51,002 bases of DNA from Eubacteriales bacterium (GCA_045590615.1 JAZNRH010000087.1:1-51002); one strand, 5' to 3'; shown: positions 9,029-34,332, counted from the stretch's first letter. Translations and numbers: made by a program. The notes: a model not told the origin generated them from the sequence alone.

Positions 9029-9102
9029 GGAATCGTCCGCAACTGGCGTAACACAGATTACTGTGAGGGAACGGACGCAATATTGAGCCGAACGCCTGGG
9101 CA
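9029..9102 (+). ncRNA. ZMP/ZTP riboswitch (pfl motif)
   Basis: P1 CGTCCG/CGGACG, conserved ACTGGCG, P2 CACAG/CTGTG, and a 3' GCCGAACGCCTGGGCA hairpin able to form the pseudoknot with TGGCG. Lies upstream of pflB, a typical context. Confidence 0.92.
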
Positions 9103-9133
9103 GTTGCAGATTTTCTGCGATTGCCCTTTTTTT
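9098..9133 (+). terminator. Riboswitch expression-platform terminator
   Basis: GGGCAGTTGCAGA-TTT-TCTGCGATTGCCC followed by T7. Overlaps the 3' strand of the aptamer. Confidence 0.85.
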
Positions 9134-17504: not shown

Positions 17505-17556
17505 TTTTTAATTATATATAGAAAATTGTTTTGAATCAACCTCGGCGGCTCGCCAC
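17505..17556. repeat. Internally deleted copy of the 105-bp repeat at 22341-22550
   Basis: 17516-17544 matches 22344-22372 at 26/29 positions; 17544-17556 matches 22532-22544 at 13/13. Confidence 0.8.
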
Positions 17557-21375: not shown

Positions 21376-22284
21376 ATGAATATATACGATATAATTGTAG
21401 TTGGCGCAGGTCCTGCAGGGCTTACGGCAGCGCTATATGGATTGAGAGCAGGCAAGAGCGTGCTCATACTTGAAAAAGGTGCGTTTGGAGGTCAGGCGAC
21501 TTTTAGTCCAAAAATTGAAAACTACCCCGGAATGACTCAGATTTCAGGTAATGAGCTTGCTGACAAAATGGTTGAGCAGGTGCTTTATCAAGGCGCAGAG
21601 GTTGAAGTTGAAGAGGTGCTTGAGGTAAAGAACGAGGGCGAGCTGAAAAGGATTATCACCGACTCGGGCGAGCATCTTGCCAGAGCTGTTGTAATTGCAA
21701 CGGGTGCTGAGCATCGCAGACTTGGTGTAGACGGTGAGAGCAAGTTTATAGGAGACGGTATTTCCTTTTGTGCAGTTTGTGACGGTGCTTTTTATGCCGA
21801 TAAAGAGGTTGCAGTTATAGGTGGTGGCAACAGCGCTCTGCAAGAGGCTTTATCTCTTTCGGAAATTTGCAAGAAGGTTACAATCGTTCAGAATCTTGAT
21901 TTCTTAACGGGCGAAAAGAGACTTGCCGAGTTGATTGAAAAGAAGGACAATATTGACGTAATTCTTTCTCATACGGTTGAAAGGGTTTTGGGAGACGACG
22001 TTTTCGCAGGTATTGTGATAAAGGGAAGCGAAGGCGAGAGAGAGCTGGGGCTCGACGGAATGTTTGTGGCAATCGGTCTTTCTCCAGCAACTGCAGGCTT
22101 TGAAAACCTGACCGAGCTTGACAAGTGGGGCTATTTTATCGCAGATGAAGGCTGCACTACAAGCACAGAGGGCGTCTTCGTGGCAGGTGATTGCCGTACC
22201 AAGTCAATCAGACAGATTTCCACGGCTACTGCCGATGGCGCTGTTGCGGCGCTTGCTGCAGTGAAATACATAGAGAATAAGTAA
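21376..22284 (+). CDS. trxB: Thioredoxin-disulfide reductase
   Basis: GAGPAG, IENYPG, CAVCDG, GGGNSA, GVFVAGD. Confidence 0.93.
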   Translation: MNIYDIIVVGAGPAGLTAALYGLRAGKSVLILEKGAFGGQATFSPKIENYPGMTQISGNELADKMVEQVLYQGAEVEVEEVLEVKNEGELKRIITDSGEHLARAVVIATGAEHRRLGVDGESKFIGDGISFCAVCDGAFYADKEVAVIGGGNSALQEALSLSEICKKVTIVQNLDFLTGEKRLAELIEKKDNIDVILSHTVERVLGDDVFAGIVIKGSEGERELGLDGMFVAIGLSPATAGFENLTELDKWGYFIADEGCTTSTEGVFVAGDCRTKSIRQISTATADGAVAALAAVKYIENK

Positions 22285-22300: not shown

Positions 22301-22340
22301 GAAAGGAAGAAAATCGCCAAAGCGATTTTCTTCCTTTTTT
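22301..22340 (+). terminator. trxB intrinsic terminator
   Basis: AAAGGAAGAAAATCGC-CAAA-GCGATTTTCTTCCTTT followed by Ts. Confidence 0.85.
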
Positions 22341-22550
22341 ATCATATAGGAAATTGCTTTGAATTAACCTCGCCGTTTTGCCTTGCTTTAGTTTAGAAAA
22401 AGTAAGGATAGGCGAGATTCGCCAGCGACGGCTCGTCGCTTTTTTATCATATAGGAAATTGCTTTGCATTAACCTCGCCGTTTTGCCTTGCTTTAATTTA
22501 GAATAAGTAAGGATAGGCGAGATTTGCCAGTGGCGGCTCGCCACTTTTTT
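22341..22550 (+). repeat. Tandem duplication of a 105-bp structured element
   Basis: Units start at 22341 and 22446 and differ by 8 substitutions. Each unit holds several hairpins and ends in a 7-bp hairpin plus T-run. Confidence 0.92.
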
Positions 22551-24486
22551 ACTTTATTGTAATTATGAAGACTTCAGGATGGATTGGTTTTATCGGGCAG
22601 TTGATGGTTATATCTTTCCCCGATTTTTCAAAGTCTACGGGAACGTCCTCGCCCTTTCCGTTTATGCGAACAACTTTTTCAACTTCTGCGTCAATCCAGA
22701 GTGGAAGGTTTTCCAGGATATCCCAGCCGAGTGCAAAGGGTGCTACGATATATTCCTTGTCCGAAAGCATACCTGCTCTCAGAAATACCTCGCTGTCTCC
22801 TGTATAATAAAGTGGCAGAGCGCCAAGCTCCAAAAGGATTTTCACCATTTGTTTTTTACGGCTTTCGTTGAGGAACGAGAAGCCCTGAGTGTAAGTGAAC
22901 GGCGCTTTAGGTGTGCCTGCAAAGGTAATGGTGGTTTTTGCGTCCTCTCTTTTGTATATTGCAGTTGCAGGGAAGAGGTGTACTCTGTCAACGTCGTTTT
23001 CAAGATGATATGCAAACGAGTCTGCGATGATTTCCTTTTCGGGAACAAGCTCGAGCAGGTTCATTTGATTTTGACACGTTCCACCGTTTGAAAGCTCTTC
23101 GCCCGTAATGGTTGCACCTGTCCATTTTCTTGTAGAGACTCCGAGATATTTTGCGTAGCCACGTTTCGTTAAAGGCTCAACACATTCAGAGGAAAGAATT
23201 ACGTTGCCCGAGAAAATTTTATCAAGGCTTTCGTCGGAAAAGTAGTCGATTGACGATGACAGGAAGGATACGTTGGCAGTCTCGTCGGTAAAATAGAAGG
23301 GTACGCCGATTCTTTCAAGGAAAAATTCCGAGAAAGAACAGTTGTCTTCCGGCCAATTATAAGTTCTTTCTCTGTGGAATGAGAAATCGGTTGATACTTC
23401 AAAGGGAACGGCAGCGCCAACCCACTTTATTTTGGGGGCGAGTTCGGTTATTCTTTCGTACATTCCCTTGTGATCGTTGAGTGTTTTTCTGTATGCCTTA
23501 CCACTATCTGGTTCATAAGCTGAAAGTCTTGTAAACCAATGCTTAGCACCTGTGCATCCGTCTAACAGGTCTGTTGTAAATTGTGCGTGCAAAACGGTTG
23601 CGCTCTTGCCGTAGCGATTGAAGGGAATGGTGTCGGTTTCGGCAAGAATTACGTCAACGCCTTCTCTTTTAAGCTTTGTTATAGTACGGGCACTTCTTTG
23701 AGCTATGTTTGAAAAGCCTCGCATATTCTGAGGAGCATAGATTCCGTTTGGAACGCGCACGATGGTCGGGTTGCCCTTTCCTGCAAAGGCTTTGCCGGTC
23801 AGAGCTCCAAATTCGCAAAAGTTTCCACCTACGCAGATTGCACCCTGAATGGTTGGGTCGATTTCGTCAATACCCTCTCGAATTGCGCAGATTGTTTCGT
23901 AAAGGGAGTCCTTTTGAGTATCGGAGAATACCCTTGTAATCGGGTCGTTTATGGGGTGGGTTTGAGTATAATTCCAGAGCTCCTCTCGAGTCATATTCAG
24001 ACCTGTACGACGGTTGAATTCTGCCATGTGAAGATGGCAGGCACAGCCGTGACCCTGACGGTAGAGCAAGCGAAAGTCGTCGTCAATCATTATTACGCTT
24101 GGGTGACAAGTGGCAAGCTGTCTGAAAGCATTTTTCAGATATTCTCTGAGTCTTTCGTCGGCAGGACAGCCAACAAAGGTTTCTTCACCGTCGTTGAGAT
24201 TTTTTAATGGTGTGAAGGAGATTGGATTATTCAACGGGTAACCGTGACCCAAGGATGATTGAACCAATATTCCGGAGGGCACGCCGATGGCGTCAAGTTT
24301 TTCTTTGAATTGCAAATACTTGTTGCACAGTGGGGTTGTTTTATCAATTGGGGGCTTTCCTTCAGCGTGAAGCTTCATATAAAAAAGTGGAATGGAAATT
24401 CCTTTTTCATATAAATCCTTAACATCTTCACATATCTGGTCAATGTGATTGATGTCAAGTGGTGTTATTGAATAAAGATGTTTCAT
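22549..24486 (-). CDS. Uncharacterised 645-aa protein, possibly glycoside-hydrolase-like
   Basis: Long ORF with an AAGGAGG RBS. Acidic and Cys motifs MIDDDFRL, GCACHLH and AETD. The function is only a guess. Confidence 0.7.
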   Translation of the reverse strand: MKHLYSITPLDINHIDQICEDVKDLYEKGISIPLFYMKLHAEGKPPIDKTTPLCNKYLQFKEKLDAIGVPSGILVQSSLGHGYPLNNPISFTPLKNLNDGEETFVGCPADERLREYLKNAFRQLATCHPSVIMIDDDFRLLYRQGHGCACHLHMAEFNRRTGLNMTREELWNYTQTHPINDPITRVFSDTQKDSLYETICAIREGIDEIDPTIQGAICVGGNFCEFGALTGKAFAGKGNPTIVRVPNGIYAPQNMRGFSNIAQRSARTITKLKREGVDVILAETDTIPFNRYGKSATVLHAQFTTDLLDGCTGAKHWFTRLSAYEPDSGKAYRKTLNDHKGMYERITELAPKIKWVGAAVPFEVSTDFSFHRERTYNWPEDNCSFSEFFLERIGVPFYFTDETANVSFLSSSIDYFSDESLDKIFSGNVILSSECVEPLTKRGYAKYLGVSTRKWTGATITGEELSNGGTCQNQMNLLELVPEKEIIADSFAYHLENDVDRVHLFPATAIYKREDAKTTITFAGTPKAPFTYTQGFSFLNESRKKQMVKILLELGALPLYYTGDSEVFLRAGMLSDKEYIVAPFALGWDILENLPLWIDAEVEKVVRINGKGEDVPVDFEKSGKDITINCPIKPIHPEVFIITIK

Positions 24487-34033: not shown

Positions 34034-34151
<118 letters not shown>

Positions 34152-34158
34152 TTTATAT

Positions 34159-34229
34159 TCCTCCTTAGCTCAGTCGGTAGAGCGATTGAAAGCAAATAAA
34201 CCGGAAAATTAGCTGCTAAAGAGGAGTCA
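34159..34229 (+). pseudogene. tRNA-Asn-derived pseudogene / tRNA-like element
   Basis: The first 26 nt are identical to the 5' end of the downstream tRNA-Asn. A 3' AAGAGGA-GTCA can close the acceptor stem. No recognisable anticodon arm or T-loop. Confidence 0.6.
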
Positions 34230-34256
34230 AAAATAAATGCTGATTTTCCACAATAT

Positions 34257-34332
<76 letters not shown>

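Follow-up and report, generated by a model that had tools for sequence, protein, structure and literature searches.

REP and BIME sequences are extragenic, palindromic and present in high copy number; they lie mostly behind genes, often in clusters, and can stabilise or end transcripts. SPRITE of S. pneumoniae, as far as it is characterised in the sections of the reports used here, is a terminator-like interspersed repeat made of an 18-bp duplex and a long T-rich tract and enriched at the 3' ends of convergent genes (PMC3049150; PMC10969869). Group IIC introns, according to the part of the report cited here, are the only known mobile elements located just downstream of terminator motifs, where an inverted repeat precedes a run of T's, and they are oriented with transcription (PMC1702495). 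Here we describe a 105-nt repeat, family A, two units of which stand head to tail in the window (the whole 51,002-nt stretch of Eubacteriales DNA that was analysed). A description of family A was not found in the literature searched outside subscription journals. The family is real and apparently undescribed, a small non-autonomous interspersed repeat that is apparently notable for its terminator-adjacent, self-propagating arrangement.

Compared by description and in kind, SPRITE appears to be the closest known analogue. In the cited accounts it shares with family A the character of a small non-coding Firmicute repeat in which a stem is followed by a U-rich tract (PMC3049150; PMC10969869). Both lie near the 3' ends of convergent genes, cluster with other repeat families and are possible terminators, as far as those accounts go. 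Unlike SPRITE as outlined there, family A has a terminator hairpin of 6-7 bp, and this hairpin is only the final module, preceded by a 5' box and an invariant clamp. Placement directly behind a pre-existing terminator and exact head-to-tail arrays do not figure in the SPRITE descriptions drawn on here, and the genus differs. Family A resembles group IIC introns in lying just 3' of a terminator stem-loop in the same orientation (27-31 of 38 arrays); however, these introns are ribozymes of several hundred nt or more that usually encode a reverse transcriptase (RT), whereas family A is 105 nt long, matches no Rfam intron, has no RT in its own genome and shows shared junction bases, which group IIC retrohoming does not make.

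Like REP and BIME, family A is extragenic, palindromic, high-copy, mostly behind genes and often clustered. In contrast, REPs are single palindromes of ~20-40 nt, often in inverted pairs, and family A units are multi-module and strictly head-to-tail. A single-copy Y1 (RAYT) gene between copies of the repeat, together with a short palindrome that has a conserved 5' tetranucleotide, marks REP/REPIN systems; no RAYT-like gene with family A units on its flanks was found. With MITEs (Correia, ERIC, RUP and others) the repeat has in common that it is short, non-coding, structured and multi-copy, forms species-specific subfamilies and is presumably mobilised in trans. Unlike MITEs, it lacks terminal inverted repeats (none of 14 inverted pairs links the first 20 nt of a unit to the last 20 nt) and any insertion sequence with the same ends, and its target is a structure (hairpin plus T run) instead of a short word such as TA. 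The initial annotation did not recognise the family, and Rfam scans agree: with Rfam 15 at the gathering score, the whole window gave only 5S rRNA, tRNA and ZMP-ZTP matches, all outside the repeat, and E-value scans of the units, of a mixed array on another contig and of 14 relatives' loci gave scattered sub-threshold hits, none of which recurs on the element.

In the window, Tandem Repeats Finder reported a single tandem array at 22334-22551 with a period of 105, 2.1 copies, 92% matches and zero indels. The two units are 92.381% identical over 105 nt by BLAST, i.e. they differ at eight sites, and base-by-base positions (Table 1) confirm the eight differences announced in the initial annotation. 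Four of these make up two compensated pairs in the terminal hairpins (22424-22440 and 22529-22545): pair 22426:22438 changes from C-G to T-A, and pair 22428:22436 from A-T to G-C. Of the others that had been pointed out, the change from G-C to G-U in the small GGCGA/T(C/T)GCC hairpin was seen at 22420, and two changes, at 22391 and 22399, fall in or beside the loop of the long hairpin when folded. The eighth, at 22362, had not been described and sits in the 5' region. The array follows a host stem-loop that scores terminator-like on the minus strand too and is thus predicted to be bidirectional. The minus-strand stop codon of the convergent 645-aa open reading frame (ORF) consists of the last two T of unit 2 and A22551 (distance -1), and ORFs running through the units overlap the neighbouring gene.

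Table 1. Positions of the features in the window and, where a contig is named, elsewhere in the same genome.
Feature	Position	Strand	Basis or remark
Unit 1, subfamily A1	22341..22445	+	Identical to 8 copies elsewhere
Unit 2, subfamily A2 (older, more diverged)	22446..22550	+	BLAST; one of 17 distinct A2
5' box TAGGAAATTGC, unit 1	22347..22357	+	Same box in unit 2 at 22452-22462
Clamp helix, unit 1	22369..22416	+	Folds; CTCGCC (22369-22374) / GGCGAG (22411-22416); unit 2 clamp 22474-22521
Variable stem within unit 1 clamp	22381-22389 / 22399-22407	+	Folds
Terminal 7-bp GC hairpin + T6, unit 1	22424..22445	+	Terminator scan, covariation
Terminal 7-bp GC hairpin + T6, unit 2	22529..22550	+	Terminator scan
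Difference 1	22362 A (unit 1) / 22467 C (unit 2)		5' region
Difference 2	22391 G (unit 1) / 22496 A (unit 2)		In or at edge of long-hairpin loop
Difference 3	22399 A (unit 1) / 22504 T (unit 2)		In or at edge of long-hairpin loop
Difference 4	22420 C (unit 1) / 22525 T (unit 2)		G-C to G-T, small GGCGA/TCGCC alternative hairpin
Difference 5	22426 C (unit 1) / 22531 T (unit 2)		Terminal hairpin
Difference 6	22428 A (unit 1) / 22533 G (unit 2)		Terminal hairpin
Difference 7	22436 T (unit 1) / 22541 C (unit 2)		Terminal hairpin
Difference 8	22438 G (unit 1) / 22543 A (unit 2)		Terminal hairpin
Host stem-loop + T run behind upstream gene	22302..22340	+	Fold -24.9 kcal/mol; array sits behind it
Upstream gene, Pyr_redox_2 (thioredoxin-reductase-like) ORF	21376-22284	+	Pfam
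Downstream convergent 645-aa ORF	22549-24486	-	ORF call; no Pfam match
Degenerate short-form family A remnant	17516..17555	+	BLAST; 5' box region joined to 3' end
Family B copies	C43:697-1006 (twice), C70:3-104, C103:47892-47993, C111:2691-2792, C85:27005-27099		Own genome
Family B remnants	C99, C84, C88		Own genome
Short forms	C5, C49, C93, C108, C112, C85, window 17516-17555		BLAST
IS200-type element	C2:1-700 and C114:1-560	- (C2)	Split over two contigs overlapping by 141 bases

The genome to which the window belongs is an assembly of 1.80 Mb in 125 contigs (88% complete, 42.4% GC) with some strain redundancy, so that the locus counts are maybe a few too high; three pairs of contigs (C22/C115, C24/C117 and C41/C51) have upstream flanks in common, and strain variants or other repeats possibly inflate the counts there. 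In this assembly the 105-nt unit has 53 BLAST matches at 41 loci and 44 matches to the covariance model. The 37 full-length copies fall into two subfamilies, 20 with the hairpin type of unit 1 (A1) and 17 with that of unit 2 (A2). Nine of the 20 A1 copies are identical to one another, suggesting that A1 is a young burst, whereas all 17 A2 copies are distinct, as would be expected of an older subfamily. Unit 1 has 100% matches on C112, C82, C78, C51, C50, C44, C31 and C22, and the order A1-then-A2 recurs at two further loci (C50 and C51). Since both units belong to subfamilies with many copies elsewhere, the eight differences in the window separate two subfamilies and did not accumulate after a local duplication. 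Therefore, the suspicion of a dispersed REP-like family was borne out by BLAST and the covariance model, with many copies in this genome and in congeners, but the argument that a neutral duplication would not show such changes falls away, because the units are members of two dispersed subfamilies and not mutually diverged copies. Many copies lie at contig ends, which indicates that the repeat breaks the assembly.

The modules of a unit were read from an alignment of 67 diverse copies (window and relatives), from folds and from pair counts. Each unit consists of a 5' box, a clamp around a variable stem, a short variable linker, and a GC-rich hairpin with a T tract; the body carries indels between copies. 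The 11-mer of the box, TAGGAAATTGC, occurs exactly 38 times in the own genome (0.86 expected), and all 38 occurrences are inside family A, a second family (B) or short elements. The clamp is invariant in all 67 aligned sequences, and five of its six pairs never vary in 104 distinct rows, figures to be read with the caveat that most relatives were gathered by a pattern requiring the words CTCGCC and GGCGAG; 29 nhmmer hits gathered without that pattern also keep the clamp words, with few exceptions. A GTTT after the first clamp strand and a GATA before the second are invariant or nearly so across species. The variable inner stem is weakly supported, with a mean z of -0.88 against shuffles and values below -2 in 20% of 151 elements.

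The terminal hairpins of both units have seven pairs (five GC), a loop of three and a tail of at least T5, and both pass the terminator scan. The 3' module thus has the predicted form of an intrinsic (Rho-independent) terminator, a GC-rich stem-loop followed directly by a T tract. Among the 151 distinct elements of the relatives, 117 carry a T run of at least four after the hairpin; the tract is present in 102 of 116 elements with the 5' box versus 15 of 35 without it, and some versions lacking both box and T tract form tandem arrays. This set left out eight elements with GC > 0.60, two with N and three singletons in unrelated taxa, and at least three of the GC-excluded elements (L108, L144 and L182) look like true members. 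As was proposed from the two units of the window, the terminal hairpin is maintained by compensatory change, and this holds family-wide: 97.6% of cells are paired, six of six pairs include double changes, and double-change cells number 124 in the alignment fitted to the covariance model, whereas shuffles average 35.5 +/- 4.9, none of 500 being as high, and slid-partner controls never exceed 8. A MAFFT alignment, which is not structure-fitted, gives the same covariation; in it, the two inner pairs each occur as four pair types.

The covariation shows that a stem is required, as it would be in an intrinsic terminator and, equally, in a DNA hairpin that serves mobility. The initial annotation had taken the G-U pairs as favouring a plus-strand RNA. 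However, across the aligned terminal hairpins wobble pairs (eight) are as common as A-C/C-A pairs (nine), which would be wobbles on the other strand, and both strands fold equally well (units 1 and 2 against shuffles: z of -2.1 and -2.5 on the plus strand, -2.6 and -3.4 on the minus strand). In the inner region, 120 of 151 elements have their better fold on the plus strand, but this advantage was rejected as strand evidence, being confounded by the T+G-rich composition of the plus strand. Polarity is therefore given by the T tract, not by the G-U pairs. Meanwhile, the alternative GGCGA/T(C/T)GCC pairing, which had been likened to a switch, is present in only 42 (5 bp) or 62 (>=4 bp) of the 151 distinct relatives' elements, and a riboswitch-like switch was rejected as a feature of the family. 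A further alternative partner of GGCGAG, the CTCGCC in the A2 hairpin, is found in 15 of 151 elements.

The position of the copies was analysed at the 38 arrays of the own genome with a readable true 5' end and flank. Twenty-seven of them lie directly behind a hairpin of <= -8 kcal/mol whose end is no more than 3 nt from a T run, and 31 do so when four hairpins of -6.4 to -7.7 are counted; seven lack a hairpin by this test, three of which show one further upstream by eye. Among control T5-8A sites outside the elements, such a hairpin was found at 143 of 1209 intergenic (12%) and 161 of 2281 coding sites (7%), so that a T run alone fails to explain the position. The polarity is always hairpin, T run, element. 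A bias of orientation to the G-rich strand (GC skew) is weak (23 of 33 arrays, p 0.035). When remnants and loci with family B only are included, there are 47 array loci: the downstream ORF is convergent at 33, at 22 (the window included) it stops no more than 9 nt from where the array ends, and only two arrays are between divergent ORFs. The genome is compact (about 92% coding by a crude ORF call) and the host hairpins before arrays are often predicted to be bidirectional terminators; thus the transcript of the convergent gene must traverse the repeat in antisense before reaching its terminator. Within arrays, units are head-to-tail with exact unit spacing, up to three in number (three A1 in a row on C41). 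Since each unit ends in a hairpin and T tract, it recreates the site behind which units occur, and this accounts for the exact head-to-tail arrays.

Several host hairpins upstream of arrays (C41, C51, C42, C24, C117, C84 and C88) are near-copies of each other, with a long stem built on CTGTAAAAAA...TTTTTTACAG and sometimes a leader of 15-20 nt in common, which suggests another repeated terminator-like family. A different insert of 88 nt, with 8-9-bp terminal inverted repeats of the classical MITE-like kind, is found at C115:361-448, where it splits the third unit of an array within its 5' box.

Family B, of about 102 nt, has a body unrelated to that of family A and carries the same 5' box and a hairpin with T6; box and hairpin-plus-T architecture are all that A and B have in common. 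It occupies the same kind of site and forms mixed arrays with A (B-A-B on C43). Short forms of about 40-48 nt, in which the box region is joined to the last bases of an A2 hairpin across two CTCGCC words, were also found, as were a few 5'-truncated copies.

Junctions were compared for 74 solitary copies, taken from the own genome and from relatives. The base that follows the 5' T run tends to recur directly behind the 3' T run: where the former is G, the latter is G as well in 8 of 11 copies, versus 9 of 63 where the 5' base is not G (Fisher 1.8e-4), a count that leaves out two further G-G cases (C24 and C117). Shared prefixes average 1.26 nt, compared with 0.97 +/- 0.10 when the pairs are permuted, and 21 of 5000 permutations reach the observed value. 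The sharing spans 0-6 nt, with 3-6 bases in individual cases, the true length being masked by the T runs. It may be read as a short duplication or as microhomology joining. Even next to short or interrupted host T runs, copies carry a uniform T5-6 at their 3' end, so this tract is at least partly the element's own.

No empty site was found in the comparisons tried, and insertion is something we infer rather than see. In metagenome contigs, a degenerate two-flank pattern for an empty site of the C78 copy had no hits, and a 21-mer from the end of the upstream gene had one, unrelated. Two element loci compared between the close relatives G015 and G005 lie in regions that are both rearranged and gave no clean empty site. 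In four sequencing runs with the site, the summed depth of the repeat bin is 20-40 times that of the flanks, with short contigs and none bridging; two backward joints in run X2 fit longer arrays, and no joint skipping units occurred among these short, non-bridging contigs.

The covariance model matched 12 of 15 congeneric genomes and none of 35 genomes of seven sister genera. Matches number at least 74 each in G002 and G009, 55 in G012, 28 in G015 and 1-13 in the others. BLAST detected the unit in 10 of 15 congeners and, apart from one 26-nt match, in none of 45 genomes of other genera. A pattern scan over bacteria and archaea with one genome per species returned at least 124 stretches; among the 80 matches listed, 75 are in 15 metagenome-assembled genomes of uncultured Clostridia, Eubacteriales or Oscillospiraceae with animal-gut titles, and the remaining five are single, GC-rich, chance-like hits in unrelated taxa. 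No copies were found in viral contigs, plasmids or phages. Copies are 70-85% identical between species versus up to 100% within a genome. Behind its trxB-like gene, G009 has an independent copy in the opposite orientation, again behind a hairpin and T run, and the other 13 congeners with this gene have no family A copy within 330 nt past the stop, G004 having a family B copy there. An old copy stands at the same place in G015 and G005, with the hairpin decayed in both. Together, the genus distribution, the identity levels, the differences at the trxB locus and the decayed copy point to lineage-specific bursts followed by decay, and not to a conserved gene. At locus L187 of G009, a trxB-like ORF runs into an antisense copy of the repeat, which supplies its last codons and stop.

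From the observed dispersal, subfamily structure, terminator-adjacent position, hairpin covariation and genus distribution, we consider it probable that family A is a non-autonomous interspersed repeat that both seeks and carries terminators, that the two units of the window are neighbouring insertions, and that the family has spread within one genus of uncultured gut Clostridia. Its copies would have arisen by transposition-like events, and a putative enzyme acting in trans would recognise them in cis by the 5' box, clamp and hairpin. A new copy would insert, always in one polarity, directly 3' of a hairpin-plus-T-run that is already present, i.e. a host terminator; every copy, ending in a terminator-like signal, would then offer the next target and give rise to head-to-tail arrays like the A1-A2 pair. 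Insertion behind a terminator with a terminator aboard should be almost harmless to the flanking genes, and a high copy number could thus be reached. The copies would probably affect their neighbours in two ways: transcripts reading through from the upstream gene would meet a redundant terminator, and the convergent gene would gain a structured 3' UTR in antisense.

Read in this manner, family A would be an unusually clean case among small interspersed repeats, which are common but mostly poorly explained, combining fixed polarity, a structural target and self-renewing tandem growth. The occurrence of one 5' box on two unrelated bodies may point to a specific mobilising activity in an uncultured gut genus. 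In practical terms, the repeat breaks assemblies and could be mistaken for a regulatory RNA, and it adds predicted terminators and structured 3' UTRs behind dozens of genes.

A stronger version can be put forward tentatively: terminators would be recognised in a dedicated manner as attachment sites, and the elements would be "portable terminators" composed of a common 5' box, exchangeable bodies (A, B and others) and a hairpin, moved by a putative enzyme or by SINE-like reverse transcription of terminated transcripts. If dedicated targeting holds, about one in six terminator-like sites of the genome would already be occupied (27 versus 143 free), and there would be a second route, beside group IIC introns, by which mobile DNA uses terminators as safe havens. 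However, the terminator association could in part be a survival filter instead of targeting, and the 7 to 11 of 38 arrays with no clear hairpin upstream count against it.

It is rather unlikely that the units are instead functional structured RNAs, whether multicopy sRNAs or cis-acting 3'-UTR/attenuator elements, with the box as a protein site or single-stranded seed, the clamp and hairpin maintained for the sake of the RNA, and the copy number a secondary matter. Many trans-acting sRNAs have the same architecture, an unstructured conserved 5' stretch followed by a stem and a terminator; the conservation across species of the clamp and of the flanking GTTT and GATA would fit such a function, and the covarying terminal hairpin and the better plus-strand folding of the inner region can be cited in its favour. 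Yet a scan of the units and of the sequence ahead of them gave no sigma-70-like promoter (0 against 0.8 expected), and since the units sit behind terminators, their sense transcription needs read-through. Nine identical copies at unrelated loci indicate recent multiplication, and the same-place copies of G015 and G005 carry decayed hairpins. In addition, the inner stem is weak, the strand asymmetry is confounded by composition, the switch pairing is confined to a minority of elements, and no Rfam family matches.

The search for a partner enzyme covered RVT_1 and Y1_Tnp, by family search and phyletic pattern. The presence of RVT_1 (4 of 16 genus genomes) or Y1_Tnp (8 of 16) does not track the repeat, the RT and Y1 loci of the genus contain no 5' box or clamp, and the own assembly contains no long element carrying the box, all box-like hits being family A, B or short elements or chance hits in coding sequence. 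The most likely agent is a DNA transposase of some further family, followed by a SINE-like RNA route and, in third place, a Y1/HUH enzyme.

The SINE-like route, in which a terminated, U-tailed transcript is reverse-transcribed from the A run of a nicked opposite-strand terminator, would produce short duplications of variable length and insertions that fall at T runs with a fixed polarity. The uniform T5-6 ends at short or interrupted host T runs, junction bases shared over a variable 0-6 nt, the absence of terminal inverted repeats and the many identical copies, which resemble a master-copy pattern, are all compatible with it, and group IIC introns, retroelements downstream of terminator motifs, offer a precedent in the portion of the report cited (PMC1702495). 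We nevertheless regard this route as quite unlikely: RVT_1 has no match in the 88% complete own genome, is found in only the 4 of 16 genomes mentioned and is lacking in the copy-rich G009, G012 and G015; the RT loci are free of box and clamp motifs, no promoter is seen that would define a 5' end, and 5'-truncated copies are few.

Movement as single-stranded DNA by a hairpin-recognising Y1 (HUH) transposase, as in REP/RAYT-like or IS200/IS605-derived elements, seems very unlikely. The hairpin-rich anatomy without inverted terminal repeats, the fixed polarity, the weak G-rich-strand bias and the presence of a Y1_Tnp gene in the own genome speak for it. However, when a nearby RAYT/IS200-type transposase was looked for as the initial annotation advised, the only Y1 gene of the genome proved to be an ordinary IS200-type one (~155 aa; Table 1), not flanked by units and with end hairpins unrelated to the repeat. 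The copy-rich G012, G015, G007 and G003 lack Y1_Tnp, and the copy-free G001 and G013 have it. The freely varying hairpin sequence fits a requirement for shape or terminator function and not a sequence-specific TnpA site, and the shared junction bases argue for a duplication, which these enzymes do not make. Lastly, a neutral local tandem duplication of an intergenic stretch, suggested by two head-to-tail units that are 92% identical, is already refuted by the identity of unit 1 with copies on eight other contigs, the membership of unit 2 in another multi-copy subfamily and the recurrence of the A1-A2 order at C50 and C51.

Apart from the repeat, the window contains a ZMP/ZTP riboswitch aptamer at 9029-9108, which passes the Rfam gathering score with 48.7 bits, and a 5S rRNA gene followed by a tRNA gene at 34035-34329 (Rfam).
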